Assembly (NCBI GenBank): GCA_001314545.1
Contig: LIHN01000019.1
Location: 192,150-256,149 of the forward strand
Reading direction: 5' to 3'
Origin: Bacteroidetes bacterium HLUCCA01
Lineage (GTDB): Bacteria; Bacteroidota; Rhodothermia; Balneolales; HLUCCA01
DNA: 64,000 bases
A model generated the notes under the pieces. It saw only the letters and a program-made list of their open reading frames with translations, was not told the origin of the DNA and did not search any database. Positions within the stretch are counted from its first letter, which is position 1, and every line of letters starts with the position of its first letter. Made by a program: the position numbers and the translations under genes. Positions 2,497 through 51,947 of this stretch are shown piece after piece.

Positions 2497-4182
2497 TTAA
2501 TCGATCAAATCGATGAATTTCCGCTCCGACTCGTAATCACCGATCAACGTGATTTCTGTACCGTTCCGAAGTACCGTTTCGGGGTGGGGATTAATCTGCA
2601 TATCGTCTTTATCCTGAATGGCGATAATACTACATCCGGTCAATTTTCGAATACCACATGCTGCGATGGTTTTGCCTTGAAATTGTTTGGGAGTTTGCAT
2701 GCGAAACACATTCAGTCCCTCGGCAATCATGAGCACCTCATCACGCTCAAGAACGTTGAAAATGGCATTGGCTCCCATGGATGCGTACGACATCACAAAA
2801 TCGGCTCCGGCACGATGTAAGGTGTTCACATTTCGATCGAGGGTAGAACGCGAAATAATTTGAATATCCGGTCGGAGTCGGCGGCAATACAGCGTCAGGT
2901 ATATATTTACATCATCACTGTGGGTTGTGATAATGACCGTATGGGCCTTGTCGATGCCGGCACGGGTCAGGACCTCACGGTCTGCTGCATCACCGATGAT
3001 TGTATGCGAGCATTTGGCGGCCATAACCGGATCTTTTTCAACTACCACAAATTCCATCTGCCGGTCATTGAGCGACTTGGCCGTAGCGCGTCCCACTTTA
3101 CCGGCACCAATTATGACTACGGGTCCGTCTTTGACGTTGAAAATCCCGAAGTAATCATCGTAGTTACGGAGCTGTTCTACAGATCCTCCGAGAACCAGCA
3201 CAGACAAGTCCGTTATCAGGGTATCCGGTTGGGCAATACGGAACACACCCCGCTCCCAGATTCCGACTACATTCACACCAATTACTTCTCTTAAGCGTGT
3301 TTCAGCGAGGGTCTTACCCACCAACGGGGTCCCTGTTGCCGGTGCTTCCCCGATAATCAACTGGTCGAACCGGCCAATCACGTGCACTCGGGCATTTCCT
3401 CCCAGAGTCCTGCGGGCCAGTGAGTGCCCCATAAGAGCGCCAAGCTGTACTACATGATCACTTCCTGCCAACTTGAGAATGTCAACCGAATCAACACTGT
3501 GAGCAAGACTGACGATGGGAATATCCGGACAGATCTCACGTGCCGTGAACACGACGTTGGTGTTGATCATATCATTGCCGGTGGCAACCAGCATGGCTGC
3601 TTTGGAGACCCTGGCTTTGTTGTAGGTATTGGGATCATCCAGCTCCCCGAGCATTACCTTCACCCCCTGATCATTCAGGTTTAAAGCCTGCTGAAGATCA
3701 CTGACAAGTACAAAGTATTTATAACCGTAATCCTCAAGTTTTGTGATAAGGGTTCGGGTAATTGGATCATGATTAGTGATAAGAACATGCCCTTCCAGGT
3801 TTTCATCCAGCTCCAGTGGAGCTTTACTCCTGTTCTGCGCCTCGAGCCAGGGTGCATAAAAAAACTGAATGAAGGTAAAGGGCAGCAGTACCAGCAGGAA
3901 TACAATACCAGACAGCAGCACCACCATGGAAAAAAGTCTGCCCAGATCTGACGCGAAGGTTATATCGCCGAAGCCAAGCGTTGACATCACGGTCAGGGTC
4001 CAGTAGAATCCGGTAAGCCATGAAAACTTCTGCCCTTCATGCTCCATGAGGATATGAAACAAGACCGAATAGACTACAATAAGCAGGAAAAGGATGGCAA
4101 CGAACTTTAAGAGCCGACCAATATTGGTTTTAGCCTTTCGATTCTGCAGAAAATAGGCAACTTGTGCGGAGACAAACTTCAT
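2497..4182 (-). CDS. Potassium channel (2-TM pore) with two tandem RCK (TrkA-N/TrkA-C) domains
   Basis: K+ selectivity filter signature MSTLGFGD between two TM helices. Two Rossmann-type RCK starts (HVLITNHD..., PVVIIGAGKVGRA), each followed by a TrkA-C-like segment. 561 aa. Confidence 0.85.
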   Translation of the reverse strand: MKFVSAQVAYFLQNRKAKTNIGRLLKFVAILFLLIVVYSVLFHILMEHEGQKFSWLTGFYWTLTVMSTLGFGDITFASDLGRLFSMVVLLSGIVFLLVLLPFTFIQFFYAPWLEAQNRSKAPLELDENLEGHVLITNHDPITRTLITKLEDYGYKYFVLVSDLQQALNLNDQGVKVMLGELDDPNTYNKARVSKAAMLVATGNDMINTNVVFTAREICPDIPIVSLAHSVDSVDILKLAGSDHVVQLGALMGHSLARRTLGGNARVHVIGRFDQLIIGEAPATGTPLVGKTLAETRLREVIGVNVVGIWERGVFRIAQPDTLITDLSVLVLGGSVEQLRNYDDYFGIFNVKDGPVVIIGAGKVGRATAKSLNDRQMEFVVVEKDPVMAAKCSHTIIGDAADREVLTRAGIDKAHTVIITTHSDDVNIYLTLYCRRLRPDIQIISRSTLDRNVNTLHRAGADFVMSYASMGANAIFNVLERDEVLMIAEGLNVFRMQTPKQFQGKTIAACGIRKLTGCSIIAIQDKDDMQINPHPETVLRNGTEITLIGDYESERKFIDLID

Positions 4183-4259
4183 GAGTATAAATAAACCGGC
4201 TTGACTTGGTGGGATATCCTCGCCAAATTTACTTTTTTAATATCACACTACACAGCATT

Positions 4260-5609
4260 TTGAAAATTGTAATCATTGGCTCCGGCGATGTTGGAATTGA
4301 TTTGTCGCTCATGCTCTCCGGAGAGCGTCAGGATGTGACCATTATTGATCAGAGCCGCGAAGCGCTCAAGCGCTGTGCTGAGTCCAGCGATATCCTCGTC
4401 ATTGAGGGCAACGGCACCTCCCCTGATATTCTTGTTAAAGCCGGAGTCCCCACCTGCGATCTGGTCATTGCCGCCACCAACAGCGATGAGGTTAACATCG
4501 TAGCGTCCATGATGAGTAAACGACTGGGCGCAAAAAAGGTAATAGCACGCGTTCGTAATGAGGAATTACTGGGCGAGGCGGCACCGGTAAAGCCAGCCGA
4601 TCTTGGTATCGATGTTATTATCAATCCGGAATTTAGTCTGGCTGGTGAAATTACACTGCTGGTCAAAAGAGCAGCGGCCTCAGACCTGATTGAAATTGCC
4701 GGGGGCAGAATGCAGGTAATCGGGATACGGCTGCCTGCCGGGTCTCCGCTGATCGGGTTGAGTATGGAAGAGTATGCCGGGAACAATGCAAATATTGATT
4801 TCAGGGTGGTAGCTATTTACCGGGGCGGAATCACCATCATCCCCCGTGGAAATCACCTTTTCAGGGCAAATGACCAAATTTTCGTCATCTCGCTTTCCGA
4901 ACACATCAAACAGATAATCCGGTCAACCGGCGTCGGAGAGCAATCCGTTCAGAATATCATGATTGTCGGGGGAACCCGGGTAGGACAGCGTGTTGCCCAA
5001 TTGCTTTGCCAACAGGACCGGGGCTGGAAAATTAAACTCATAGAGCCCAGTTATGAGGCTTCCTACCAGATAGCCAGCGAAAACCGGAATATTCTTGTCT
5101 TGCAGGGTGACCCAACCGATCCCGGATTGCTGGCCAGCGAGGGAATTACGGACACCGATGTGTTTATCGCCGTTACTGATGACGAGGAATCCAATATCAT
5201 TTCCTGTCTGATGGCCAAACACCTGAAAGTTCCCAAGGTAATTGCGATGGTATCCAAGCCTGACTACATCCCCTTGAGCCAGACCATAGGACTTGACGCT
5301 TCGGTGAACAAAAAAACTTCCATTGCCAATGAAATTCACCGCTATGTACTTGGCAGTAACCTTATGCAGGTTGCCGGTCTGCACGGTATTGACGCTGAAA
5401 TTCTGCAGTTGAAAATATCCGCAAACTCCAATGTTGCCGGAAAACAAATTAAACACCTACGTTTGCCTGAAGGATGTATGATTGGTGGAATTGTTCATGA
5501 TCAGAGCGTTTCCGTAGCCACTGGCGACGACACACTGAACCCCGGTGATTCCGTGTTTGTGTTTTGTCGCCACGCCGTTATCAATGCCGTTGCTGATTAT
5601 CTGCGATGA
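4260..5609 (+). CDS. trkA: Trk system potassium uptake protein TrkA (tandem RCK NAD-binding protein)
   Basis: Two Rossmann N-termini (KIVIIGSGDVG and IMIVGGTRVG) with TrkA-C segments. Preferred TTG start at 4260 gives 449 aa with the GxGxxG at the N-terminus (track start 4206 is also TTG). ATGA overlap with the downstream trkH. Confidence 0.9.
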   Translation: MKIVIIGSGDVGIDLSLMLSGERQDVTIIDQSREALKRCAESSDILVIEGNGTSPDILVKAGVPTCDLVIAATNSDEVNIVASMMSKRLGAKKVIARVRNEELLGEAAPVKPADLGIDVIINPEFSLAGEITLLVKRAAASDLIEIAGGRMQVIGIRLPAGSPLIGLSMEEYAGNNANIDFRVVAIYRGGITIIPRGNHLFRANDQIFVISLSEHIKQIIRSTGVGEQSVQNIMIVGGTRVGQRVAQLLCQQDRGWKIKLIEPSYEASYQIASENRNILVLQGDPTDPGLLASEGITDTDVFIAVTDDEESNIISCLMAKHLKVPKVIAMVSKPDYIPLSQTIGLDASVNKKTSIANEIHRYVLGSNLMQVAGLHGIDAEILQLKISANSNVAGKQIKHLRLPEGCMIGGIVHDQSVSVATGDDTLNPGDSVFVFCRHAVINAVADYLR

Positions 5610-7126
5610 GCCATCTGTTTAACACAGCCCGATCGGTGTCACGACCTAAAATAGATTTCAGGCTGATCACCGGTGTTCTGGGACTCTTCACATTCTTTAT
5701 GGGCTTTGCCCTGCTTACACCGATCCCCATTGCGCTGATTTACGGCGAAAGCATCTGGTGGACGTACCTGGCAGGTGCAGCGGCGGCATTTGTTGTGGGC
5801 GGCAGCGCCTGGATACTATTTAAACCCACCGAAGATATCCGTCCCCGCGAAGCCTTTTTCATCGTGTCCGTAACCTGGATTGTTTTATCCGTATTCGGCG
5901 CCATACCCTTTTGGCTCAGCGGGAGTCTGGAGAGTATAGCAGACGCCTTTTTCGAAACAATAAGCGGCCTCACCACCACCGGTGCTACGGTTTTCGGGGG
6001 CGTATCGCACAACGGTCAGATGAATGTTTACATTGAAGATCTTGACCTGAGTCTGGTTTTCTGGCGTTCCATGCTGCACTGGATCGGGGGTATGGGTTTC
6101 ATTGTACTTTCCCTGGCCATCCTCCCCTTCGTAGGGTTGGGTACAGGCAATCTGTTTCAGGCTGAAAGCAGCGTACAGGAAACCGATAAGCTGACTCCAC
6201 GGGTACAGCAAACGGCAACCTATCTGTGGACCGTCTACATCGCTTTTACATTGCTGCATTTTATCCTGCTCTGGGTACACCCCTCCATGAACTGGTTCGA
6301 TGCGATTAATCATGCGATGTCTACGCTGGCAACCGGAGGATTTTCTACGAAAGACAGCAGCGTCGGGTATTTCGACTCAGCCTATGTTGACTACGTAATT
6401 ATTGTTTTCATGTATCTGGCCGGCATCAGCTTTGCGATGCATTTCAGGTTACTTCAGGGTAAGACCAAACAATTTTTCAACAACAGGGAAACCCAGTTTT
6501 TCACCATAATCTCCCTGCTGGCCATCCTGGCTATATCTCTGGGACTGTGGCTTCAGCATGACTACACTCCGTCCGACGCCCTGCGTTACGGAGCATTTCA
6601 GGCGATGTCTATTCTGACTACTACCGGTTACGGAACCGACAACTACGAGACCTGGTCTGCCTTTCCCCTCGTCATTTTAATTACCTTGTACTTCGCAGGC
6701 GGATGTGCCGGATCCACGAGCGGTGGAATCAAAATGTTCCGTCATCTGATTATGTTAAAGGCGATAAGCAGAGAAGTACGACAGACGGTGCACCCCAGAG
6801 CTGTAATTCCGCTGCGCATCGGTGAGCGAATCATAGAACCCCCGATTGTCAGAAAGATTCTGAGTTTTTTCATGCTCTACCTGCTGCTGTTTATTACCGG
6901 TGGCATTGCACTATCCGCCATGGGCGTTGATTACATATCAGCCTTCAGTGCCAGCATTGCCAGCCTCGGCAGCATTGGTCCTGCGCTGGGCGATTTTGGT
7001 CCAACCGATAATTTTGCCAGTCTTCCGGCAGCCGGCAAATGGCTTATGAGCCTTTTTATGCTGGTTGGTCGACTTGAACTGTTCACAATCATCGTCCTGT
7101 TTTCATTGCCTTTCTGGAGAGAATAA
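5606..7126 (+). CDS. trkH: Trk system potassium uptake protein TrkH
   Basis: 506-aa polytopic membrane protein with the four TrkH/KtrB pore-loop glycine motifs (LTTTGATV, LATGGFST, LTTTGYGT, GSTSGGIK). Translationally coupled to trkA. Confidence 0.92.
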   Translation: MSHLFNTARSVSRPKIDFRLITGVLGLFTFFMGFALLTPIPIALIYGESIWWTYLAGAAAAFVVGGSAWILFKPTEDIRPREAFFIVSVTWIVLSVFGAIPFWLSGSLESIADAFFETISGLTTTGATVFGGVSHNGQMNVYIEDLDLSLVFWRSMLHWIGGMGFIVLSLAILPFVGLGTGNLFQAESSVQETDKLTPRVQQTATYLWTVYIAFTLLHFILLWVHPSMNWFDAINHAMSTLATGGFSTKDSSVGYFDSAYVDYVIIVFMYLAGISFAMHFRLLQGKTKQFFNNRETQFFTIISLLAILAISLGLWLQHDYTPSDALRYGAFQAMSILTTTGYGTDNYETWSAFPLVILITLYFAGGCAGSTSGGIKMFRHLIMLKAISREVRQTVHPRAVIPLRIGERIIEPPIVRKILSFFMLYLLLFITGGIALSAMGVDYISAFSASIASLGSIGPALGDFGPTDNFASLPAAGKWLMSLFMLVGRLELFTIIVLFSLPFWRE

Positions 7127-7214
7127 CCCTTAGTAGTTGATTTTACAGCGATTTTACCCTGTAATCATTATCTTGTTGTATTAACTAGTATTGATCAACT
7201 AAACGGAAAGTATT

Positions 7215-7643
7215 TTGTCTACTGTAAAATCAACGGACACTGTGCGTGTTCACTATACCGGTACAACTGATGACGGCGTAACTTTTGACAGCTCAAGAGA
7301 GCGTGAACCCCTTGAATTCACGATGGGACAAGGACAACTGATTCCAGGCTTCGAAAAAGCTGTGGAAGGCATGACCGTGGGAGATTCCACAACGGTTCGC
7401 ATACCTGCCGAGGAAGCCTATGGCGAAGTTCGTGATGAGATGGTAGTTGATGTTGAGCGAGGTAAATTCCCGGAGGATATCACCCCTGAGGTAGGGCTTC
7501 AGCTTCAAATTCAACAGCCCAACGGGCAGCCAATGCCCGTTGTGGTCAAGGCAGTCAACGATACCCATGTCACCCTTGATGCCAATCACCCGCTGGCCGG
7601 GCAGGCACTCAACTTTGACATTGAGCTTGTTGAAATCAAATAA
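7215..7643 (+). CDS. FKBP-type peptidyl-prolyl cis-trans isomerase (SlyD-like, short form)
   Basis: VRVHYTGTTDDGVTFDSS...LEFTMGQGQLIPGFEKAVEGMTVGD...IPAEEAYG is the FKBP core. The insert-in-flap segment and LNFDIELVEI end are SlyD-like. TTG start. Confidence 0.85.
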   Translation: MSTVKSTDTVRVHYTGTTDDGVTFDSSREREPLEFTMGQGQLIPGFEKAVEGMTVGDSTTVRIPAEEAYGEVRDEMVVDVERGKFPEDITPEVGLQLQIQQPNGQPMPVVVKAVNDTHVTLDANHPLAGQALNFDIELVEIK

Positions 7644-7659
7644 GTCTCATGCATATATA

Positions 7660-7698
7660 AAAAAAAGCGTGACTGCCCGGGGCAATCACGCTTTTTTT
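7660..7698. terminator. Bidirectional rho-independent terminator between the FKBP gene (+) and pgk (-)
   Basis: aaaaaaGCGTGACTGCCCcgGGGCAATCACGCttttttt: a roughly 11-bp GC-rich stem flanked by an A-run and a T-run. Confidence 0.75.
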
Positions 7699-7714
7699 AT
7701 GTCATACAGATACC

Positions 7715-8908
7715 TTACTTATCAGTAAGCGCTGTAATACCCGGAAGCTCTTTACCTTCCAGATATTCCAGGCTGGCTCCTCCGCCCGTGGAAACGTGGG
7801 TAACTTTATCGTCAAGCCCCGCTTTTTTAATAGCTGCGGCAGAGTCACCACCGCCAATGATGGAAATAGTCCCTTTTGCGGTAGCTTCCGCCAGAGACCT
7901 GGCTACAGCGAAGGTCCCGTTGCTGAAATTGCTCATTTCAAAAACACCCATCGGACCGTTCCAAATTACAGTACCGGCCTGACGGATAACATCGGAAAAC
8001 AGACTCACAGATTTCGGACCGATATCCAGGGCCATCCATCCGTCTTCAATTCCGTCCTCTTCTACCGTCTTGATCGGCGTGTCGTTGCTGAATTCCTGTG
8101 AAACTACGGAGTCTACCGGAAGCAACAGCTTCACACCCTTGGCCTCGGCCTTCCTCATCAGCTCACCGGCCAGTTCCACGCGGTCTTCTTCCAGCTTGGA
8201 GTTTCCGATAGGCAGCCCCTTGGCTTTGTAAAAGGTGTAGGTCATGCCTCCCCCCACAATAATGGTATCGACCTTGGAAATCAGGTTCTCGATTACCGGA
8301 ATTTTATCGGAGACTTTGGCCCCTCCCAATACGGCAACGAAGGGTCGTTTCGGAGCATTGACGCTGTCGCTGAGGTATCGGATTTCCTTTTCCAGAAGGT
8401 ATCCTGCGGCGGCGGGCTGCAAAAACCCGGTAATACCGGCCACCGAAGAGTGCGCACGGTGGGAGCTGCCGAACGCGTCATTGACAAAGACGTCACCGTG
8501 TGCTGCAAGGGCTTTTGAAAATTCAATATCATTTTTGGTTTCCCCCTTGTGAAAACGGACGTTTTCAAGCAAGACAATCTCGCCGAAACCGGCTTCATTA
8601 ATCACACGGGTTGCCTCCTCACCAATGCAGTCGCCGGCGAAGTGGACTTTCGCAGCCACTTTACCTGCCAGATAATCGGCTACCAGTTTAAGGCTGAATT
8701 CTTTGTCGTCCGGGCTTTTCGGCCGACCAAAATGGGAGAGCAGAATAACTTTCCCGCCCCGCTCGGTCACATAATTAATACTCTTCAGCGCCGCCGTAAT
8801 TCGGTTATCATCGGTGATGACACCATCGGCAACGGGCACGTTAAAATCAACGCGCATTACCACATTTTTACCCTTTACATCCAGATCTTCAATAGTCAGT
8901 TTTGCCAT
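7715..8908 (-). CDS. pgk: Phosphoglycerate kinase
   Basis: 397 aa. Begins [25 protein letters not shown]...DDNRI, contains SHFGRPK, and ends ...[18 protein letters not shown]. Confidence 0.97.
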
Positions 8909-9113
8909 AATTCTACTTGATTTAAGAAATAATTACTGTATTCACAGGCTTTTGGTAAGATACCGAAAAACCAGCACTTCAGACAGTAAAACCGGCAGAA
9001 TTACACCACACCTGTACGACATCGGTGCACATCGGGCTGGCACGGACAGCCCGATTGACCCGTATTTTATGTGTATATTTCATACCGGCAAATTTTTTCC
9101 TCAAACCAAGGCG

Positions 9114-10277
9114 ATGCAAAACAAAATTTACACGGATAATGCAGCAACAACGGCCATGGACCCACGGGTTCTGGATGCTATGCTGCCCTATTTTCTGGAT
9201 GTTTATGCCAATGCCAATTCGGCCCATCAGCCCGGACGGCAAGCGCATGTTGCCGTGGAGGAGTCTCGTGAGAAAATTGCCGGAATAATCGGTGCTGAAC
9301 CCGCTGAAATCGTTTTTACCAGCGGTGGTACCGAGAGCAACAATGCCGCCATCGGGGGTGTTTTGGCTGCAACCGGCAAATCGCATGTAATCACTTCCAA
9401 TGCAGAGCATCACGCGGTTTTGCATCCTGTAGCCAGCGCAGCGAACCGTGGAATTGACTCAACCCTGCTGCCGGTTGACCAGACCGGCAAGGTCAGCGCC
9501 GCGGATGTAGCCGCCGCCATCGGACCACATACGGCGCTGGTTTCACTCATGCACGGCAATAATGAAGTCGGCACCCTGAATCCTATCGATGAAATTGCAG
9601 CGGTCTGCAGAAGCAACGGCGTCCTTTTTCATAGTGATACCGTGCAGACCGTCGGAAAAATTCCCGTGCATGTTGACGCGTTGGGTGTGGATTTTCTTAG
9701 CATGAGTGCACATAAATTTTACGGTCCGAAGGGCGTCGGCGCCCTGTATATCCGCTCCGGGTCTGCATGGAAACCCTGGATGGAGGGAGGCTCGCAGGAA
9801 CGCCGAAGACGCGGCGGGACCCTCAATGTTCCGGGTATCGTGGGTATGGGGAAAGCCCTGGAACTGGCCGCCTCGGAAATGCTGGAAAACCGCACCCATG
9901 TAGAAAAACTAAAACATGCCCTGATGCAAGGGCTCACAGAACGACTGGGTACAGCCGTGCAGTTTAACGGTGATCCGCAGAACGGACTTTTCAATATTGT
10001 GAACTGTTCGTTTGTACACCCTGCTGAACGAGCCATAGACGGTGAAATGTTACTGTTGAATCTGGATATTGAAGGCATCTATTGCTCCAACGGATCGGCT
10101 TGTACCTCCGGAGCCATCGAGGCCTCTCATGTACTGCTGGCTCTGGGCATTCCCTATGATATGGCCAAATCGAGCATTCGTTTCAGCCTGGGTAAAAACA
10201 ACACCATTGATGAAATTCCGCTCATCATTGACAAAACCGAGGCCATTTTGCGCCGCATGACATCCCAAAAACTATGA
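9114..10277 (+). CDS. Cysteine desulfurase (NifS/IscS class, PLP-dependent)
   Basis: Preferred ATG at 9114 (MQNKIYTDNAATTAMDPRV, 387 aa). PLP-lysine context SAHKFYGPKG, catalytic Cys loop SNGSACTSG. The track ORF (from 8814) runs antisense into pgk and is over-extended. Confidence 0.9.
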   Translation: MQNKIYTDNAATTAMDPRVLDAMLPYFLDVYANANSAHQPGRQAHVAVEESREKIAGIIGAEPAEIVFTSGGTESNNAAIGGVLAATGKSHVITSNAEHHAVLHPVASAANRGIDSTLLPVDQTGKVSAADVAAAIGPHTALVSLMHGNNEVGTLNPIDEIAAVCRSNGVLFHSDTVQTVGKIPVHVDALGVDFLSMSAHKFYGPKGVGALYIRSGSAWKPWMEGGSQERRRRGGTLNVPGIVGMGKALELAASEMLENRTHVEKLKHALMQGLTERLGTAVQFNGDPQNGLFNIVNCSFVHPAERAIDGEMLLLNLDIEGIYCSNGSACTSGAIEASHVLLALGIPYDMAKSSIRFSLGKNNTIDEIPLIIDKTEAILRRMTSQKL

Positions 10278-18062: not shown

Positions 18063-18935
18063 ATGAGCGTTTTAGTTGGAAAAGATACCCGTCTGGTAGT
18101 ACAGGGGTTCACCGGTAAGGAAGGCAGTTTTCACGCCGAACAAATGATTGAATACGGAACACCGGTCATTGGTGGTGTAACACCCGGCAAAGGCGGAACC
18201 CGTCACCTGGACCGGCCGGTATTCAATACCGTTGCGGATGCCGTTGCACAGGAAGGTGCCAACACCTCTGTGATTTTTGTACCTCCGGCCTTCGCATCCG
18301 ACGCCATCATTGAATCAGCTCTTGCCGGTATTAAAGTTATCATCTGCATTACCGAGGGGATTCCGGTCAAGGATATGATTGTGGCCAAAGATGTGGTCAA
18401 TCGCACCGGTGCCACGCTGATTGGTCCGAACTGTCCGGGCGTTATCACTCCGGGTGAGGCAAAGGTTGGCATTATGCCGGGTAATATCTTCACCCCCGGA
18501 CCCATCGGGTTGATTTCCCGTTCCGGTACCCTGACCTATGAAGCCGTTGACCAGCTCAGTAAAGCCGGTCTGGGACAAACCACCGCCATTGGTATCGGTG
18601 GTGATCCGGTAATTGGCACCACCCATACGGATGCCGTGAAGCTGCTGAACGAAGATCCTGACACCGAAGCCATCATGCTTATTGGTGAGATTGGTGGTAC
18701 GGCCGAAGAAGAAGCGGCGGCCTACATCAAAGAGCACGTCAGCAAGCCTGTAGTAGCCTTCATCGCCGGACAGACCGCCCCTCCGGGTCGACGTATGGGT
18801 CATGCCGGTGCCATTGTATCCGGTGGCAAAGGCACGGCCGAAGACAAGATGAAAGCGCTGGCCGCTGCGGGTATCACAGTATGTGAAAGTCCGGCAGTCA
18901 TGGGAGAAACCATGAAATCGCTGCTGGGCCGCTAA
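18063..18935 (+). CDS. sucD: Succinate--CoA ligase subunit alpha
   Basis: [24 protein letters not shown]...[12 protein letters not shown]...SRSGTLTYE...[15 protein letters not shown] (phosphohistidine loop). No sucC adjacent. Confidence 0.97.
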
Positions 18936-18957
18936 AAATCACCGACCATCCTGGTAA

Positions 18958-18998
18958 AAGCCGGTGCCGCCCGTTTCGGATGCTCCGGCTTTTTTTTT
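18958..18998 (+). terminator. Rho-independent terminator after sucD
   Basis: aAGCCGGtgccgcccgtttcggatgctCCGGCTtttttttt: hairpin followed by a T9 run. Confidence 0.7.
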
Positions 18999-19032: not shown

Positions 19033-19725
19033 GTGACCAACCTTACAGATACCGTCAAAGAGGTGGTCATGGGTGTTTTACCCATGGCTGCTGTGGTTTT
19101 TGCGCTGCAATTTACCATCATCTGGGTGGACTGGGTCATCTTTATCCAGTTCGTTGCCGGTCTGGCCATGGTCATGGGCGGACTGATTTTGTTTTTGCTG
19201 GGAGTTCATGTGGGTTTGCTTCCCATAGGCGAGCGTATTGGCTCGGCCCTGCCGCAAACCGGTAAGCTATGGGTCATTCTGGTGGCCAGTGTAGTACTCG
19301 GATTCGTTGTTACGATTGCAGAACCCGATGTGAGGGTGCTGGCCTCCTATGTAGACACAGCCTCTCAGGGCGTTATTGACCGAAGCATTCTGGTCTTCGC
19401 CGTTGCCGTGGGGCTGGCCCTGTTTGTGGGGATTTCGATGCTCAAAATCACGCTGGGAATACCAATCAGGTACCTGCTCACCGGTGGATATACGGTGGTT
19501 TTCATCCTGGCGTGGTTTTCTGCACCACAATACCTGCCCATCTCCTTCGATGCCGGCGGGGTCACTACCGGTCCGATGGCTGTACCATTTATTCTGGCCC
19601 TGGGCGTTGGTGTAGCCTCCGTTCTTAAAAGCAAATCGGGGTCGGGTGAAGGCTTCGGACTGGTTGCCCTGGCCTCCATCGGTCCTATCATTGCTGTACT
19701 CATTCTGGGGATGTTCTACGCATGA
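19033..19725 (+). CDS. DUF1538-like polytopic membrane protein, paralog A
   Basis: 230 aa, about 6 TM. Shares blocks with the next ORF: LFLLGVHVGLLPIGE, TIAEPDVRVL, FDAGGVTTGPMAVPFILALGVG. GTG start (an ATG 12 codons downstream is possible). ATGA overlap with paralog B. Confidence 0.8.
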   Translation: MTNLTDTVKEVVMGVLPMAAVVFALQFTIIWVDWVIFIQFVAGLAMVMGGLILFLLGVHVGLLPIGERIGSALPQTGKLWVILVASVVLGFVVTIAEPDVRVLASYVDTASQGVIDRSILVFAVAVGLALFVGISMLKITLGIPIRYLLTGGYTVVFILAWFSAPQYLPISFDAGGVTTGPMAVPFILALGVGVASVLKSKSGSGEGFGLVALASIGPIIAVLILGMFYA

Positions 19726-20453
19726 GTGAGCTGAATCTGTTCAAAGGCCTGGGCCACGTTGTCATTGAAGTCAGTTTTGCACTGGCTCCTCTGCTGCTTT
19801 TTTTCCTGTTTTTTCAGGTCTTCTTTCTCAAACTACCCCGAAAGAAAATCACCGATATTCTCAAGGGCGTAGTACTCACCTTTTTCGGACTGGTACTTTT
19901 TCTGCACGGTGTACATGTAGGTTTTCTGCCCTTCGGCGAGGCCATGGGGCACAAATTTGCCGCCTTGCCCTACAAATGGATCATCATCCCGGTTGGTTTC
20001 CTGCTCGGATTTGTGGCCACCTTTGCCGAGCCGGCCGTGCGTATTCTCAACCACGAGGTCGATAAAGTAACCGCCGGGTACATCCCGCAGCGACTCATGC
20101 TCCTGACCCTGTCGCTGGGCGTGGGTATTTCCATTGCCCTGAGTATGGCCCGGGTCATCTACGACCTGCCCCTGATGTATTTTGTGGTACCGGGCTATGT
20201 GCTGGTACTCATCCTCTCCTGGTTCACCAGCGAAACCTTCACTGCCATAGCCTTCGATTCCGGTGGAGTGGCTACCGGACCCATGACCGTTACGTTCATT
20301 ACCGCACTGTCTTTAGGACTTGCATCAGCCGGTGATGGTCCGGACAGTGCCATCGATGGCTTCGGGATGATAGCCCTGGTTGCATTGGCGCCTATTCTTT
20401 GCGTTCTTATTCTGGGCGTGCTGTATAAACTGAAAGAAAGACAAAACATGTAA
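19722..20453 (+). CDS. DUF1538-like polytopic membrane protein, paralog B
   Basis: 243 aa. Blocks LFLHGVHVGFLPFGE, TFAEPAVRIL and FDSGGVATGPMTVTFITALSLG are paralogous to ORF A. Confidence 0.8.
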   Translation: MSELNLFKGLGHVVIEVSFALAPLLLFFLFFQVFFLKLPRKKITDILKGVVLTFFGLVLFLHGVHVGFLPFGEAMGHKFAALPYKWIIIPVGFLLGFVATFAEPAVRILNHEVDKVTAGYIPQRLMLLTLSLGVGISIALSMARVIYDLPLMYFVVPGYVLVLILSWFTSETFTAIAFDSGGVATGPMTVTFITALSLGLASAGDGPDSAIDGFGMIALVALAPILCVLILGVLYKLKERQNM

Positions 20454-20455
20454 TC

Positions 20456-21166
20456 ATGCTGCAGGAAACACAAGACCCAAAACGTCACAAGCTCGTGTTC
20501 ACGGTGGTCAAAAAGGGGGCTGCATCCAAGGTCATAGCTGCAGCCCGCACAGCCGGCGCTGAAGGGGCCACGACCCTGCCCGGACTGGGAACTGCACCGC
20601 CCGGCACCTACACCTTCTGGGGAATTGATATGGGTCCCGAGAAAGAAATTGTCATCATTATGGCACGCGCTGATGTGGCCCATGATGTTTTTACCGCCAT
20701 CCGCCGCATCCTTAAGCTGCACCGGCCAGGAAGCGGCATATCCTTCACGCTTGACCTGCTCTATCTGGCAGGCTGCGTTCATATGGGACGAAAAACCCAC
20801 AAACTTCCCCGTAAAACCACTACCTCCGAGACCATGCAACCTACCGATACCTACGACCTCATAGTAACCATCGTCAACGATGGATTCAGCGGCGATGTCA
20901 TTGACGCATCACGCCAGGCCGGCGCCGAAGGCGGAACCATCATGCATGGCCGGGGCTCGGGAATTCATGAAACCGGCAAACTATTTTCCCTGAACATTGA
21001 ACCGGAGAAGGAAATCGTATTCACTCTGGTACCCCGCACCATCAGTGAACGTGTTTTACAGACCATCATCGAAAAAACACAGCTCAATGAGCCCGGCAAA
21101 GGCATTGCCTTTATGATTGAAGTGGAAGATGTGGCCGGTATAGCCCACAAGCTCACCGAAGAGTAA
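20456..21166 (+). CDS. Fused tandem P-II (GlnB)-like signal-transduction protein
   Basis: Two ~100-aa modules (res ~11-106 and ~134-231), each with P-II-like layout. N-terminal beta-alpha: KLVFTVVKKGAASKVIAAARTAGAEG / DLIVTIVNDGFSGDVIDASRQAGAEG. T-loop-like G.G...PEKE. B-loop-like PGSGISF / PGKGIAF. Starts 2 nt after paralog B. Confidence 0.75.
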   Translation: MLQETQDPKRHKLVFTVVKKGAASKVIAAARTAGAEGATTLPGLGTAPPGTYTFWGIDMGPEKEIVIIMARADVAHDVFTAIRRILKLHRPGSGISFTLDLLYLAGCVHMGRKTHKLPRKTTTSETMQPTDTYDLIVTIVNDGFSGDVIDASRQAGAEGGTIMHGRGSGIHETGKLFSLNIEPEKEIVFTLVPRTISERVLQTIIEKTQLNEPGKGIAFMIEVEDVAGIAHKLTEE

Positions 21167-21174
21167 CGGAATGG

Positions 21175-21846
21175 TCAGCCGGTAGTCAGCAAAATTTTTC
21201 GGGCGATGTCGGCCGGAACCAGTAATCGCTCAGCATCCAGCACAATCCGCACACCATCGGGCTCGCGGCGGATAACATTCAGTTTTTTGCCAAGCATCAG
21301 ACCAAGTCGGGTCAGCACGTTGAGAAAATCGGCATCCTGAGAGCGAACCCGATAAATGATGCCGGAGGCACCATCCTGTAAATCCAGCAGGGAAACCGTA
21401 GCCGGCTGATCCGGGAATTTCAGATCGGCTGAAGGAATGGGGTCGCCGTGAGGATCGTGAGTAGGGTGTCCCAGCTTTTCGGCAATACGTGCTTCAAACT
21501 TTTCACTGATATGGTGCTCGAGCCGTTCAGCTTCCTCATGGATTTCATCCCAGGTGTATCCCAGCACTTCGGAAAGATACATTTCAATGAGACGATGATG
21601 CCGCAGAATCTGAACGGCAATCTTTTCGCCGGCAGCCGTAAGCTCAACACCGTGATACTTCTCATAATCAACCAGAGAGAGCTCCGAAAGCTTTCGCAAC
21701 ATTCCCGTAACCGAGGCGGGTTTCACATTCAGATGATCTGCCAGTGCCTGGGTAGTCACGTGCGGCATAACTTCACCGAGCTCGAAAATCTTCTTCAGGT
21801 AGTCTTCCTGCGACTCGGTGAGTTTATTTCGGGTTTTGTCTGTCAT
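21175..21846 (-). CDS. DtxR/MntR-family metal-dependent transcriptional regulator with C-terminal FeoA/SH3-like domain
   Basis: ESQEDYLKKIFEL...TTQALADHLNVKPASVTGMLRKL (wHTH), metal-site region HRLIEMYL...EEAERLEH, and a C-terminal FeoA-like segment. Confidence 0.85.
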   Translation of the reverse strand: MTDKTRNKLTESQEDYLKKIFELGEVMPHVTTQALADHLNVKPASVTGMLRKLSELSLVDYEKYHGVELTAAGEKIAVQILRHHRLIEMYLSEVLGYTWDEIHEEAERLEHHISEKFEARIAEKLGHPTHDPHGDPIPSADLKFPDQPATVSLLDLQDGASGIIYRVRSQDADFLNVLTRLGLMLGKKLNVIRREPDGVRIVLDAERLLVPADIARKILLTTG

Positions 21847-31707: not shown

Positions 31708-32400
31708 TTATTCGATATCTTCTTCTGAAATATCGTCCGGAGAGATATTTTCTTCGGTTTCCGGTGTATCATCAATGTCGTCATCGTCATCGTCGTCTTC
31801 GGGTGGCGGAGGTGGTGCCACTTTTTTCTTGGCTTTTTCTTCGGTAGCGCCGGCTCGTTTGAGCAGCATCCCCACTTCAAGCTGGTCCATTTCATTGGCC
31901 ATGTTCAGCGCCGTATCTCCGTTTTTGTCGCGCGCACGCACATCGGCACCCTTGTGAATAAGGTAACGAACAATGTCGGCATGGCCTTCCTTGGCTGCCA
32001 GCATGAGGGGGGTATGTCCCCAGTTTGAGGACGTATTCACATCGGCGCCGTGCTCTACAAGAAGTTTAACCGCCGCAAGTTTACCTCCCCTGGCGGCAAT
32101 ATTCAGCACCAACGGACCGATTTCACATCCGTTTTCCAGCAGAAATTTCATCAGATCGATGTTGGCGTTGTCAGCGGCCCGGTTTAAAGCCGTTCCCCCT
32201 ACTTTGTTTTTCAGGTTGACATCGGCTCCCTTGGATACCAGATATTTGACCACGTCATTGTGATCGTTCTGAGAGGCAAAAATCAGAGCCGTTGAGCCGT
32301 TTTTAGCCGTTTCGTTGATGTCGGTACCGGAGGACAGATAGTGTTTAACCTGCTCCAGGTTGCCGTCGAAGGCGGCTTGTAAGAAATCGGATAATTCCAT
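31708..32400 (-). CDS. Ankyrin-repeat protein with Pro/Asp/Glu-rich C-terminal tail
   Basis: About five ANK repeats (NGSTALIFASQNDHNDVVKYLVSKGADVN; GGTALNRAA..; GHTPLMLAAKEGHADIVRYLIHKGADV; NGDTALNMA). Tail KKKVAPPPPPEDDDDDDDIDDTPETEENISPDDISEEDIE. No signal peptide. Confidence 0.85.
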   Translation of the reverse strand: MELSDFLQAAFDGNLEQVKHYLSSGTDINETAKNGSTALIFASQNDHNDVVKYLVSKGADVNLKNKVGGTALNRAADNANIDLMKFLLENGCEIGPLVLNIAARGGKLAAVKLLVEHGADVNTSSNWGHTPLMLAAKEGHADIVRYLIHKGADVRARDKNGDTALNMANEMDQLEVGMLLKRAGATEEKAKKKVAPPPPPEDDDDDDDIDDTPETEENISPDDISEEDIE

Positions 32401-32594: not shown

Positions 32595-33527
32595 TCAGCC
32601 TGAGCCGGACGATGTAATCCGGCCATCCCCGGTGTAGCCATTAAAAAATGATGCACCGTCCACGGGTTTTTTCCCTTCCAGCTGCACCTTTTCCAGGGCG
32701 ATGGTCGTGTTATCGGCACAAGCTACCAGTAGTTTACCATCGTGAAAGTGTATCCGTCCGCTTTCCAGGTGCATGGCTGGTCCCGGCTGCGACTGCTGAA
32801 CCTTCAGGCGTTTATCGTCCAGCCAGGTGTGTGCGCCGGGAAATGGTGTGAGTCCGCGGATCTGGTTATGTACAACCGAAGCGGGCCTGGTGAAATCAAT
32901 CACGCAGTCGGGGGCGTAGAGTTTGGGTGCAGCCGTTGCAAGGGCCTCATCCTGTTGAGTCAACGTGTAGGTACCGGCCTGGATTTGTTTAACGGAGTGT
33001 ACCAGCAGCTGGGCACCCAGATGCATGAGCCTTTCGTATACCTGACCGGTAGTTTCATCGGGGTCTATGAAAGTCTGGCACTGTGCGATGTAGCTTCCGG
33101 TATCAACGCGCTCATCCAGAAAAAAAACGGTTGTTCCGGTCCGGGTTTCCCCATTCATAACGGCCCGGTGGATGGGTGCCGCTCCACGGTAGGCGGGCAG
33201 CAGGGATGCGTGCAGGTTGACTGCTCCCCGGGTGGGAATATCCAGAATGGTTCGGGGCAGCACACGGAAAGCAACCACGACCAGTAAGTCCGGTTTTAAT
33301 GCTCTGAGCTGGTCTGCAAAATCGGGATTACGCAGATCATCAACCTCAATGACGGGCAGGTTGTAACGCAGTGCGGCGGACTTTACCGGTGTTGCAGAGT
33401 GCGCTGTGCCCCTGCCCCGACGTTTATCGGGTCCGGTGACCACGGAGACGATAGAAAACCCTGCGTCTGCCAGTGCCTCCAGCGAGGCGACGGCAAAGTC
33501 AGGACTCCCCATGAAAACTATTCGCAT
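32595..33527 (-). CDS. fmt: Methionyl-tRNA formyltransferase
   Basis: MRIVFMGSPDFAV..L, and HASLLPAYRGAAPIHRAVMNGE. 1-nt overlap (TGATG) with def. Confidence 0.95.
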   Translation of the reverse strand: MRIVFMGSPDFAVASLEALADAGFSIVSVVTGPDKRRGRGTAHSATPVKSAALRYNLPVIEVDDLRNPDFADQLRALKPDLLVVVAFRVLPRTILDIPTRGAVNLHASLLPAYRGAAPIHRAVMNGETRTGTTVFFLDERVDTGSYIAQCQTFIDPDETTGQVYERLMHLGAQLLVHSVKQIQAGTYTLTQQDEALATAAPKLYAPDCVIDFTRPASVVHNQIRGLTPFPGAHTWLDDKRLKVQQSQPGPAMHLESGRIHFHDGKLLVACADNTTIALEKVQLEGKKPVDGASFFNGYTGDGRITSSGSG

Positions 33528-37468: not shown

Positions 37469-40400
37469 TTACTTGATAAGCGTCATTTTCTGGGTTTGTA
37501 CGAAATCACCGGCCATGATGCGGTAGATGTACACGCCGGAGGCCAGCTGTGTAGCATCAAAGTTGACCTGGTGTGTACCAGCCGGACGCACATCGTTGAC
37601 CAGCGTGGCAACGAGCTGACCGGTAACGGTGTATACGTTCAGACGAACCTGAGCTTCAACCGGGAGCTGATAGCTGATGGTGGTTGTCGGGTTGAACGGA
37701 TTCGGATAGTTCTGATTCAGGGCGAAGGCCATCGGCATTTCGTCCGTGTTCAGATTGGTTCCGAATGCATCACCTTCGAAGGCACCTTTGTACGGCTCGG
37801 TATCAGATCGCTCGTTACCATCGATATCAAACGGAATGATTTCGATAGGTACACCGGCCAGGTTACGGTCGCCGATGGACGATCCGGTCAGACGCAGGTC
37901 GGTCAGTGACACAAACTCTACACTGCCGGTAGTGGAAATGTTGTCATTTCCGGTGGCATCCGCAAAAGCGGCTAGCGTAGCGTAGGTATCGGTACCTACC
38001 TGAGCAATGGCTCCGTTACCTCCGTTGAAGAAGTGGTTGGAGTTGGCGTCCAGCGAGGAGCCTTCCCACAGGTATCCGTAGGTATTGGCATCGGAGCGTT
38101 CCAGTGAAACGATGTTGTTCACAAAGTTCATCTGTGCGCCTGCTGCTGCACCGGAGGTACGGGCAACGGCTGCATGAATTCCCGAGTTACCGGTATCGGT
38201 AATGCGGAAGGTGTTGTGCAGGGTAATGAACGCTGAGAGTGATGCACCGCCTTCGTGACGGAATCCGTAGAAGTTGTGGTTGGCTTCGGTGCCGGTGTAT
38301 CCGCCGGTAGTGAAGGTATTGTTAACCACATAGACTTCGTCAATCAACGTATTGGTTGCCTGGAACCCAATGAAGGTTGTTTCGTCCGTACGGGCTGTGC
38401 TCACAAACGACAGCTCGTTGTTGGAGAACTCAAAGGATTCAATCGGGGTGTTCAATCGCATGAGCGATTGCTCCGAGGCGAACCCATATCCGTAGAACTG
38501 GTTACCACTGATAACCGTGTTCACGTGAGTTTGGGTTCTGAAACCACTGCGACCAACGTGGAACTCACTTTCATAGACACCGGTGTTCAGGTGGACTACA
38601 TCAGCAGCGCCGGTAGTGGATCCGAACAGCCAGATACCATCATTCCATGGTTTATCGGCAGAACCGAAAGCCACGTTTTCAATGTACAGGTTTTCCGATT
38701 TTCCGGTATCAACAGTTCCGCTCTCACGACGGTTTACAATCATGGCGTAGGTTGCTGCGCCGAGATCATCTTCGTAGGTGAGGGTTACATGGGCAAACTC
38801 CAGATCCAGTGTGTTGCTGAAAAATCCGACCAGGCCACCGGCTCCGCCGTTTTTCATCAGGGTGAGGTTACGATCACCTTCGCCGTCATTGGATCCGTCA
38901 ACGGTGATGAATCCGGTATCAACGAAGCTGAGCAACGGCAGGGAGACGGTTACATCTTTACCCGGAGCCGGAGCAATCGTTACCCGTGTTTCCTCAGTGA
39001 GGTCGCCACGATTGAAACGAACGGTTTCGGTCTCGGTAAGGTCGCCGTCAATCAGGAGCAATACAGGAGCTACTGCACCAGCTTCATTAAGGTCCGCAAC
39101 GGCATCGCTGAGCGAAGCAAATCCGCGCTCGTTATCGCCCTGGGGAATATAATAGGTTCCGGACAGGGGCAGCGCGGGCAGGATCACATCCGTTGCGTTG
39201 ACCGGATAGAGCTGGTAGGTTCCGCGGAAGTTGCCGACAACACCTTCGAAGGTGAATTCACGATCCGGGATGGCAACACCAACAATGCGTGTATTGTTCT
39301 GGTTGGGTACACGGAAATCAACTTCACCGGCATTGGTGGTAGCATCAAAGATGGTGTAAGTCTTGCCAGAACCTGAACCGGCGCTGAAAGTCACATCGCC
39401 GTCAGGATCAATGGAGATTCCCTCCACGCGTACCAGTTCTCCTTCATAGTCAGCACCGTTATCGCGAAGCTCTGCAAGAGTAACCAGCTGGGCTTCAGGA
39501 AGTGCATTGTCCCGTGAAATGACCTCGAATGATGTGATACTGCTTACCTGCAGCTGATCATTGAAAGCACCGCGAGTACCGGTCATACGCACAAGGTCTC
39601 CCTCAGCCACATCACCGTCATTAACTGCTGTACCGTAATCGGTAGAGCTGCCGGCGAAGGTATTGATGGCTGCCGTTTCGTCCTGAATACGGGTTTCTGC
39701 GCCACCGGCACGGGTAATTACACCCTCGATGGTAACCAAACTTCCGCTTTCCAGGGCACGGGCTTCAGCGATGGTGTAGGTATCAAATACTTCGCCGCGG
39801 GTCAGTACCACGGAGGCAACATCCCCGAAGGTCAGGGCGCTACCGTCTGTGCTGATTGCACGGTGGTAAAGCGTAACGGTTTCGTTGACTGCCACGTTAT
39901 TCTCGGCCAGAAGCGCATCAACGGCACTCATAGTCAGTTCGGCAGATGTTTCTGTTCCGGCACTGATGTTGAGCAAGGTTGATCCAAAGGTTGGCTCAGT
40001 TGAAAGCTGCCATACGTAGGCAACGAGGTCGTCGTCGTCATCGGTAGCTGCAGCCCAGGTTGGCACAAACGGTGTCAGGGCAAAGCCCTCGATGGTGATT
40101 TCAGCCTGATCTGCAGGTGCTACAATAGCAGAAGCAGCAGGTGCGGTATTCGGATCAACCAGAAGCTGACCACGAACTTCACCGGCAGGGAACTCGTCTG
40201 TATGGATGTTTACATAGTAGACACCGGCAGCCAGCTCAGCGGTCTGGGTAGCATCCAGCGTGAAGGTATTGCTCGCAGCCTCAAAGGTGAGCTCGTTGTT
40301 ATCAACGGTCGGATTCAAGGCGAAAACTACACCGCCATTGGTACCGTTTACACCGGTATGGATGTGCGACATGGTGTAATTGCCGGTCAGACCGCTAACC

Positions 40401-42058: not shown

Positions 42059-42280
42059 ATTCGACTCCATAAGTTTGTTAGTATTGTCTTTTCCAGCCGC
42101 CAACGGTTTGTCTGAACGGCTGATGTAGTGATCTGTAGATGTGCAGCGGCGCGTCTGTCTGAAACCGCTACCAACCTCAGCGACAAGGTAGCATTAAGAT
42201 TGTTCTCGTTCCAATTTTTTTCACAGTTGCACTCCGCAGACAAAAAAACCGGATAATCGCCACCCACATACTGTGTAAAT

Positions 42281-46509: not shown

Positions 46510-46627
46510 AGTTTAAAAGTACGGAATCAGCCGGCAACGCCAAATTTGAAATCGTCAAATGCCCTGCCTTTCGGTTTGATTGAGGCGGACTGTAGACCTA
46601 TATTTCAGCTATATATTCAACACTTTT

Positions 46628-51835: not shown

Positions 51836-51947
51836 ACGGCATTCTCTCCATTTATCTATTTACGACCCTAACCTTAGTAATGAGCGGGAGGGTTTAAGCC
51901 CCCCCGCCTGAGTTTTTCTCAGTTTCCTACTTCCGACACGAATTACC

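Follow-up and report, generated by a model that had tools for sequence, protein, structure and literature searches.

The window analysed here is a stretch of 64,000 nucleotides (nt) from Bacteroidetes bacterium HLUCCA01 (contig LIHN01000019.1, positions 192,150-256,149), and all coordinates refer to positions within it. Three open reading frames (ORFs) on the same strand, designated A, B and C, fill positions 19033-21166 and encode two paralogous DUF1538 membrane proteins and a protein built of two P-II-like modules, an arrangement which we conclude to be one instance of a real and widespread P-II-transporter module. Gene A (19033..19725, plus strand) begins with a GTG codon and encodes a DUF1538 A-type subunit of 230 aa, the resulting N-terminus of which aligned with those of its homologs. 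Gene B (19722..20453, plus strand) encodes a B-type subunit of 243 aa, its start codon overlapping the stop codon of A as ATGA (GCATGAGTG), and gene C (20456..21166, plus strand), encoding the tandem P-II-like protein of 236 aa, starts 2 nt past the TAA stop codon of B (TAATCATG). These boundaries, the overlap and the 2-nt spacing had been given in an initial annotation made from the same DNA, and all were borne out by the sequence. The GC content of the triad was 0.533, relative to 0.522 for the window. The parts already carry public names, 'DUF1538 domain-containing protein' and 'P-II family nitrogen regulator', so the adjacency of the genes is visible to anyone looking; what the present analysis adds is their family-wide linkage, the existence of transporter-sensor fusions, a predicted antiparallel topology, a membrane part for which no known fold was detected, and a non-canonical sensor signature.

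Both A (E=6e-70, 235 bits) and B (E=3e-77, 259 bits) matched the Pfam DUF1538 profile (PF07556, cutoff 22.6) from position 2 to 211 of its 211 positions, and the two proteins share 40% identity over 190 residues (E=3e-49). Their assignment to DUF1538 in the initial annotation thus held end to end, and every motif that it had listed for the paralogs was present in both. One shared block reads LFLLGVHVGLLPIGE in A (residues 53-67) and LFLHGVHVGFLPFGE in B (residues 59-73). A second motif, in which E, P and R are invariant in the alignment and which falls at a helix break in the model of a fused homolog, is AEPDVRVL in A (residues 96-103, including E97 and R101; 19318..19341, plus strand) and AEPAVRIL in B (residues 102-109, including E103 and R107; 20025..20048, plus strand). 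The third, at a second helix break and with invariant F, D, GGV and TGP, is FDAGGVTTGPM in A (residues 172-182, including D173; 19546..19578, plus strand) and FDSGGVATGPM in B (residues 178-188, including D179; 20253..20285, plus strand). An internal repeat within one DUF1538 domain was considered and rejected, since hhalign gave it a probability of <4%, compared with 99.8% for an A-versus-B control; pseudo-symmetry would therefore arise from the A/B pair alone.

The two halves of C are homologous to each other (34% identity, E=2e-20). Against the Pfam P-II profile (PF00543, cutoff 25) the C-terminal half scored 44 bits within the whole protein and 34 bits alone, whilst the N-terminal half remained below threshold (14 bits, E=0.058). 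An AlphaFold2 model of C (pLDDT 80, pTM 0.76, from a 105-sequence alignment) comprised two modules of beta-alpha-beta-beta-alpha-beta fold, one spanning residues 11-100 and the other residues 133-227, with a disordered linker between them and T-loops of low confidence, and its top Foldseek matches were GlnK/GlnB structures with target-normalised TM scores of ~0.65-0.75. The earlier description of C as two P-II modules is thereby upheld, by Pfam for the C-terminal half and by homology and the model for the N-terminal half. The N-terminal module (20486..20755, plus strand) is degenerate, with GLGTAPPG at the T-loop base where the family has GRG(T/S)GIHE; it lacks the GRG and IHE residues, and the first modules of tandem proteins are in general much less conserved. 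The C-terminal module (20852..21136, plus strand) carries AGAEGGT, GRGSGIHE, IEPEKE, PGKGIAF and AGIAH. Its T-loop region, GRGSGIHETGKLFSLNIEPEKE (residues 165-186; 20948..21013, plus strand), is conserved, with R166, G167, G169, I170, H171, E172, L176, F177, P183, E184 and K185 each invariant among 105 homologs or conserved in 90% or more of them. The low pLDDT of this region is as expected of a flexible loop, and the near-invariant residues R166, H171, E172, L176, F177, E184 and K185 point to a candidate contact or ligand site.

When aligned to E. coli GlnB, both modules retained the glycine scaffold (GxxGxT, GxG and PGxG), but their T-loops were 6 residues shorter and lacked the modifiable tyrosine motif. 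We take the canonical GlnB/GlnK T-loop to be ~19 residues long with the tyrosine motif Y-[KR]-G-[AS]-[AE]-Y (PROSITE), and the canonical B-loop signature to be G-[DY]-G-[KR]-[IV]-[FW]; the B-loop of C modules reads PGKGIAF or PGSGISF. In canonical P-II proteins R38, Q39, K90, R101 and R103 bind ATP and 2-oxoglutarate. The R38/Q39 pair of GlnB is replaced by S/G in the C-terminal module and by T/A in the N-terminal module, K90 is replaced by I, and R101/R103 are absent. With neither the tyrosine motif, nor the ATP/2-oxoglutarate residues, nor a link to amtB or nitrogen genes, C does not appear to be a canonical GlnB or GlnK. Searched against the PDB, the family profile matched best to 9p1x chain H (E=2e-6), a 105-aa P-II protein from a 12-chain entry which has a short T-loop like the C modules, though the relatedness is weak; GlnK/GlnB chains followed at ~1e-3 and SbtB chains at E=0.04-0.24. 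Placement in the SbtB family is disfavoured by these weaker matches and by the lack of sbtA in the neighbourhood. A permissive Pfam scan (E up to 10) of both halves of C and of three single-module partners found no P-II-type family other than PF00543, and so C did not fall among the DarA/PstA c-di-AMP receptors, which we take to correspond to PF06153.

The conservation of the arrangement was examined from the DUF1538 side by scanning one genome per species, which gave at least 595 relatives; the best 80 loci were analysed and scored with purpose-built hidden Markov models. All 80 belong to the nearest kin of B, with 42% identity or more, and more distant DUF1538 clades, including the UmpAB pair discussed below, fall outside the sample. 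A P-II gene adjoined the DUF1538 genes in 78 of the 80 loci. In 77 of these 78 it was located immediately downstream on the same strand, at a median distance of ~-3 nt, and in the other (L018) it was divergently upstream. Of the two loci without P-II, one (L014) ends at a contig edge, leaving Metabacillus lacus (L037) as the only true lack; in the latter (5273-9574) the genes after the DUF1538 pair encode a membrane protein of 313 aa and an MgtE-like product. No fewer than 10 bacterial phyla and 4 archaeal lineages were represented, with bacterial hosts in the Bacillota, Balneolota, Bacteroidota, Desulfobacterota, Planctomycetota, Aminicenantes, Caldiserica, Dehalococcoidia and Alphaproteobacteria, and archaeal hosts including Methanospirillum, Methanomicrobiales, Methanomassiliicoccales, Thermococci and Woesearchaeota. 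From the P-II side, 1880 C-like proteins were matched at E<=0.001, with tandem proteins in Balneolales and many Firmicutes. In Carboxydothermus, Alkalicoccus and a Bacillus-like genome a C-like tandem follows two DUF1538 genes amid unrelated flanks, and three plasmid records annotated by PGAP (Methylocystis, Chelativorans and Paraclostridium) have the same layout, the partner being labelled 'P-II family nitrogen regulator'. All-against-all clustering of 1340 flanking ORFs revealed no conserved companion gene beyond close relatives. The P-II protein is thus supported as a dedicated partner of the DUF1538 pair, and the test of neighbourhood conservation that the initial annotation had proposed for the triad came out in its favour, the unit being kept amid differing flanks.

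There were several individual loci of note. On the Methylocystis rosea plasmid (L085) the module is flanked by IS66/IS4 transposases, and on a Chelativorans conjugative plasmid (L086) gene A is truncated to 90 aa; these plasmid-borne copies suggest horizontal spread, with decay in some hosts. In L004 (4247-4356, minus strand) a match to the BsrF small RNA (81 bits) was found on the strand opposite to the module, within the gap that precedes it.

In the window, the stop codon of sucD lies at 18933-18935, and just 3' of sucD there is a terminator-like hairpin (GCCGG...CCGGC) with a run of nine T residues (18956..18998, plus strand), read from the sequence, the inner stem and T-run of which were also found by a terminator scan. 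This putative terminator separates sucD from the triad, with ~33 nt between the hairpin and T-run and the start codon of A. A promoter scan found no sigma-70-like promoter upstream of A, an alignment of the window with its two closest relatives (L090 and L091) was uninformative as to a shared promoter motif, and Rfam returned nothing relevant from 11 Firmicute loci with long upstream gaps or from a permissive scan of the window region. The relative L091 keeps the order dnaG-sucD-A-B-C-mntR-hisF-gltB. In L090 a divergent ORF stands upstream of the triad in place of sucD, so the triad there would have its own promoter, independent of sucD. By tblastn, dnaG, sucD, mntR and hisF were found in 0 of 89 more distant loci, being present only in the two closest relatives, and a neighbourhood containing gltB, which lies 1.9 kb downstream of C in the window, was likewise common only to the closest relatives. 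The amt gene (51948-53375, minus strand) is located 31 kb from the triad and, as had been remarked previously, has no adjacent glnK. Earlier, sucD, gltB and amt had been regarded as suggestive context; this functional clue was rejected, given that the neighbours recur only in the closest relatives, that sucD has a terminator-like hairpin of its own and that amt is remote. The nitrogen and tricarboxylic acid cycle context of the triad is incidental.

These observations bear on the view that C is an ordinary nitrogen-regulatory GlnK or GlnB which serves the amt or glutamate synthase of the window, its place after the DUF1538 genes being incidental. We consider this very improbable: an amt without adjacent glnK, the proximity of gltB and the public name 'P-II family nitrogen regulator' given to C-like proteins would agree with it, yet adjacency to DUF1538 in 78 of 80 loci across phyla with unrelated flanks, the occurrence of fusion proteins, and the tandem form of C with short T-loops and without GlnB/K signature residues all argue otherwise, as do the distance of amt and the limitation of the gltB neighbourhood to the closest relatives.

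Architectures were counted in 84 loci (L001-L084) and the window. Two DUF1538 genes with a tandem P-II gene, the window type, were present in 23, two DUF1538 genes with two separate P-II genes in 6, and two DUF1538 genes with one P-II gene in 19, the hosts of this single-P-II form including archaea, Enterococcus, Dehalococcoidia and several Desulfobacterota. A fused A-B gene (encoding about 500-550 aa), mainly found in gut Clostridia, was accompanied by a tandem P-II gene in 28 and by two separate P-II genes in 6. One locus had a truncated DUF1538 ORF at a contig edge with one P-II gene, and two had two DUF1538 genes and no P-II gene. The N-terminal half of the natural fusions scored best with the A-type profile and the C-terminal half with the B-type profile. 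Single-module partners, from other phyla and archaea, resemble the C-terminal module of the window protein, sharing GAEGGT, GRGTGIHE, IEPEKE, PGxGIAF and GIxH.

Covalent links between transporter and sensor were also found. A search of 1.84 billion cluster representatives with a profile built from A and B of the window retrieved 3998 DUF1538 clusters at E<=1e-3, of which 2434 remained at E<=1e-10 and 750 at E<=1e-30. The best 150 representatives included 135 A-B fusions, five A-B-PII proteins and two A-B-PII(N)-PII(C) proteins. The A-B-PII forms were found again, always at the same length, in NCBI, ENA and Logan assemblies that are independent of one another; the four-module fusions (P0359, 720 aa, and P0367, 709 aa) come from one contig each and are less secure. 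Precomputed Pfam annotation of P0359 gave DUF1538 and P-II, and directly downstream of its gene lies that of CTP synthase, with no separate P-II gene, which is also lacking for P0388. By Rosetta-stone reasoning, such fusions argue for an action of the P-II modules on the DUF1538 proteins, and they suggest a stoichiometry in which one A and one B go with one or two P-II modules. Three further candidates for three-domain proteins (P0132, P0133 and P0134, metagenomic, of 660-690 aa) were discarded as probable assembly artefacts, since in each a stretch of 130-180 residues is duplicated exactly. Long C-terminal extensions of B, considered as hidden P-II modules, were likewise rejected, being low-complexity tails. 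Such tails, highly acidic or lysine-rich and 60-110 residues long, extend B or the fused A-B protein at its C-terminus, predicted to be cytoplasmic, in L030, L039, L045 and L018, their hosts being soda-lake Syntrophomonadaceae and some others.

The fusions may also be taken differently, in that the P-II modules could be an obligatory structural or gating subunit, comparable to a RCK/TrkA-type ring, and not a reversible, ligand-dependent plug, or that A/B could be a channel and not an exchanger; the mechanistic analogy with GlnK and SbtB would then be misleading. Covalent A-B-PII and A-B-PII-PII proteins do imply constitutive association, and the degenerate N-terminal module, the loss of canonical ligand residues and a membrane fold without known relative, which leaves the transport mode unfixed, would all be compatible with it. 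However, the GAEGGT, GRGxG and PGxGI loops framing the nucleotide site are the best conserved parts of the C-terminal module, which argues for a retained ligand pocket, and UmpAB is active without P-II, if its clade is comparable. We regard an obligatory structural or gating role of P-II, or a channel function of A/B, as unlikely.

The membrane part was modelled from the natural A-B fusion P0121, for which AlphaFold2 gave a confident, all-helical structure (pLDDT 84, pTM 0.83, from a 101-sequence alignment) with about seven membrane helices in each half. The model has breaks between helices 80-96/99-107 and 161-173/179-191, which coincide with the invariant AEPxVR and FDxGGVxTGP motifs. Orientation can be inferred from the positive-inside rule, by which cytoplasmic loops are enriched in lysine and arginine. 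In A-type subunits the N-terminal-side loops averaged 5.71 K+R compared with 0.65 in the others, whilst in B-type subunits the direction was the reverse (1.86 versus 6.30), each direction being held in 83 of 84 cases; the alternation of K+R per loop was compatible with seven spans. The 29-residue linker from A to B in fusions contains 1.1 K+R and 3.9 D+E, and loop 1-2 of B, of 7 residues, contains 3.6 K+R. An odd number of helices joined by so short a linker means that the two halves must face opposite ways. A is accordingly predicted to be N-in/C-out and B to be N-out/C-in, and the C-terminus of B, to which P-II is attached in the fusions, is predicted to be cytoplasmic, consistent with this topology. 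Opposite positive-inside bias, an odd helix number and a linker of extracytoplasmic type together point to an antiparallel heterodimer of 7+7 helices. Of the initial proposal for this pair, the heteromer stands, on the strength of the A->B fusions, the opposite bias and the co-immunoprecipitation of UmpA and UmpB, whilst its 'pseudo-12-TM' form, from about six transmembrane (TM) helices per subunit, gives way to about seven per subunit in antiparallel arrangement, as indicated by the model of the fused homolog and the charge pattern of the loops.

Antiparallel pairs of small transporters, and fusions of them, are represented by SMR pairs such as EbrAB, by Fluc/CrcB and by DUF606. The DUF1538 proteins resemble these in having adjacent paralogs with opposite positive-inside bias and fusions via an odd helix number, and would have followed the same route to an inverted-repeat transporter; they differ in having 7 helices per subunit rather than 4, an unrelated fold and a dedicated cytoplasmic P-II partner. 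No PDB sequence was matched by the family profile of the membrane part. A Foldseek search of the P0121 model against the PDB, a method of low sensitivity for all-helical membrane proteins, returned no match better than E=0.019, and no TM score exceeded 0.19. The safe statement is that a known transporter fold for the modelled membrane part was not detected in the PDB.

The initial annotation had stated that no substrate was assigned to these genes. This has to be corrected, as a distant DUF1538 pair has been characterised as a Na+(Li+,K+)/H+ antiporter and NCBIfam models for it exist. Overlapping DUF1538 genes umpA and umpB of Halomonas zhaodongensis, only when present together, rescued E. coli KNabc both in the presence of NaCl or LiCl and under alkaline conditions; UmpA and UmpB co-immunoprecipitated; and everted vesicles displayed Na+, Li+ and K+/H+ antiport with K0.5 values of 0.26, 0.46 and 0.41 mM, respectively, and an optimum of pH 9 (Meng et al. 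2017, PMC5484666). P-II is unmentioned in that paper, the cloned fragment of which ended after umpB, and its Table S1 lists pairs from Planococcus donghaensis and Enterococcus as homologs of 30-36% identity (PMC5484666); loci from these two genera in our set (L017 and L083/L084) carry P-II. It is the only experimental work on the DUF1538 family. The window pair resembles UmpAB in consisting of adjacent, overlapping DUF1538 paralog genes, with about 7 predicted helices each, that would form a membrane hetero-oligomer, both UmpAB subunits being required, and differs in being only about 30-36% identical to it, with no clean A/B orthology, and in that no P-II partner is mentioned for UmpAB. Two codon-degenerate junction probes for the Halomonas umpAB locus, run against metagenomes, matched only L092, a chance match, and a terminus-bait protein search likewise did not retrieve the locus. 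Full-text searches found no literature linking P-II to DUF1538, with most subscription journals outside their coverage and an earlier mention possible.

Several supporting hints agree with cation/proton exchange by the module. Invariant Glu, Arg and Asp residues are positioned at broken helices; DUF1538 is among the key pH-adaptation gene families of a machine-learning model for optimal growth pH (PMC13255231); and many hosts of the module are haloalkaliphiles, methanogens and anaerobes, which we infer to rely on sodium cycling. The remaining hint is adjacency to genes of the Mrp/Mnh multi-subunit Na+/H+ antiporter, assigned by eye and restricted to three related Bacillales loci (L012 Virgibacillus, L017 Planococcus and L028 Planomicrobium).

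A different substrate can be envisaged from the cyanobacterial Na+/bicarbonate symporter SbtA and its P-II-like regulator SbtB. Here A/B would be an SbtA-like transporter of inorganic carbon, another anion or a metabolite, with C in the role of SbtB sensing adenine nucleotides or second messengers, and the activity of UmpAB would be a side activity or specific to its clade. The layout of a transporter with a dedicated P-II-like protein is that of SbtA-SbtB, a good many hosts are alkaliphiles or inhabit soda lakes, UmpAB is only remotely related to the window pair, and on the Methylocystis plasmid a gene for a SulP anion transporter lies at a distance of a few kb from the module. Nevertheless, heterotrophic gut Clostridia, Enterococcus and methanogens have the module in abundance and show no carbon-concentrating genes close to it, the C profile matched SbtB only at E=0.04-0.2, more weakly than GlnK/GlnB, and the sole direct measurement in the family is cation/proton antiport. 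We therefore think carbon or anion transport improbable. The likeness to SbtA-SbtB is that of a divergent, non-nitrogen P-II-like protein tied to one transporter in the same operon; apart from the SbtB match, the differences are that the transporter belongs to another family and that the hosts of the DUF1538 module are mostly heterotrophs or methanogens.

The reading we favour, and hold to be on balance somewhat probable, is that A/B is an ion/proton exchanger switched by C as its dedicated P-II protein, the three products constituting one membrane machine. A (N-in/C-out) and B (N-out/C-in) would pair as an antiparallel 7+7-helix heterodimer, each subunit with two broken helices, one bearing the invariant Glu and Arg of AEPxVR and the other the invariant Asp of FDxGGVxTGP, and these charged residues in the membrane core may form the ion and proton binding sites. 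By analogy with the distant UmpAB, the most likely activity would be monovalent-cation/proton exchange, of Na+ and/or K+ against H+. C would dock on the cytoplasmic face beside the C-terminus of B and switch the transporter in response to a small-molecule signal, the conserved C-terminal module being the likely sensor and the degenerate N-terminal module probably a scaffold. Its ligand would presumably be a small molecule other than the ATP and 2-oxoglutarate pair of GlnB, and docking would probably inhibit transport, as that of GlnK and SbtB does. If the P-II modules trimerise, the complex may be a trimer of A-B-C units.

There are points that weigh against this exchanger model. A trimeric P-II protein is not obviously a match for a pseudo-twofold heterodimer, and since C lacks the equivalents of GlnB R38/Q39, K90 and R101/R103, its ligand is not given by sequence. 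Transfer of function from UmpAB, across about 30-36% identity, is tentative. With the NCBIfam models for UmpA and UmpB (NF041627/NF041628), A scored 110.9 and 107.8 bits and B 126.9 and 105.4 bits, relative to the 490/500 bits set as equivalog cutoffs. Ten further A/B proteins, diverse in origin, scored 78-135 bits without consistently mapping A to UmpA and B to UmpB; UmpAB thus appears to be a separate deep branch. All experimental evidence comes from one study, which used vesicle assays and complementation in a heterologous host and in which UmpAB was active in E. coli without any P-II (PMC5484666). Finally, neither a riboswitch nor a conserved neighbour that would hint at a substrate emerged from the Rfam searches of the 11 Firmicute loci and the window region or from the 1340 flanking ORFs.

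In the AmtB-GlnK system an ammonium channel is plugged by a co-transcribed P-II protein. The DUF1538 module shares with it a transporter with a dedicated P-II encoded beside it, cytoplasmic docking (predicted for C) and flexible T-loops as the likely contact. It differs in that the membrane proteins are unrelated, that AmtB is a homotrimer matching the P-II trimer whereas the DUF1538 unit would be a pseudo-twofold heterodimer, and that C is a tandem with T-loops 6 residues shorter, lacking the ATP/2-oxoglutarate side chains and the T-loop tyrosine. Paired P-II paralogs acting together are known from NifI1/NifI2, and here too two different P-II modules are used together, from two genes or one tandem; the proposed target, however, is a membrane transporter, and the two modules are often covalently fused.

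We know of no more than two transporter families for which a role as direct target of P-II or P-II-like proteins is established, and the DUF1538 module is a candidate third for P-II, among the most widespread of signal transducers. With about 4000 clusters at 50% identity, it spans many bacterial phyla, methanogens and other archaea, abundant gut Clostridia, haloalkaliphiles and plasmids. If the cation/proton assignment is true, P-II signalling would be linked to sodium/potassium and pH homeostasis, and thousands of 'nitrogen regulator' annotations would be corrected. The membrane part offers a natural series for how inverted-repeat transporters arise, and natural single-chain A-B-PII-PII proteins are ready constructs for structure determination. 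A bolder and rather doubtful extension, which we offer tentatively, is that DUF1538 with P-II represents a third, ancient and widespread class of P-II-controlled transporters beside AmtB-GlnK and SbtA-SbtB, and the first for cation/proton exchange. Its membrane fold would be previously unseen and preserved in three evolutionary stages (antiparallel gene pair, fused inverted repeat, and fusion with its own sensor), and it might assemble as a trimer of heterodimers around a P-II core, the divergent P-II reading a signal other than ATP/2-oxoglutarate, such as ADP/ATP alone, a cyclic dinucleotide, or an ion or pH-related ligand.

Downstream of the triad, a DtxR/MntR-type metal regulator is encoded on the minus strand (21175-21846), converging on C with 8 nt between the stop codons and no terminator visible between the two genes. 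Its closest NCBIfam model was MntR (286 bits, under the cutoff of 350), and the convergence is kept in L090 (4715-5407) and L091 (4716-5441) and absent elsewhere. In L090 fmt (341-1279), with def, lies directly upstream of the triad, the position held by sucD and dnaG in the window, where fmt is found 12 kb downstream on the other strand (32595-33527); this indicates a local rearrangement between close relatives.

Elsewhere in the window, a potassium-transport cluster (2497-7126) encodes, on the minus strand, a 561-aa protein with an ion-channel domain and two TrkA_N/TrkA_C (RCK) units, followed by divergent TrkA (467 aa) and TrkH (506 aa) genes. Another cation-homeostasis system of this DNA, it shows no linkage to the triad in other genomes. 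Within 51164-53375 (minus strand), the amt product of 475 aa has an N-terminal extension of roughly 75 residues before the Pfam domain, and amt is followed by a 223-aa ORF without Pfam match, of beta-barrel or porin-like appearance. ORFs of 492 aa (46580-48058) and 484 aa (62476-63930) had no Pfam match at E<=0.001. A 230-aa protein (31708-32400, minus strand) consists almost entirely of ankyrin repeats, which is unusual in a free-living bacterium. Three large proteins (37469-42103, 42339-44465 and 58875-60734), one of 1544 aa with a CHRD domain, carry the C-terminal sorting domain of type IX secretion, which fits with a host of Bacteroidota/Balneolota type.

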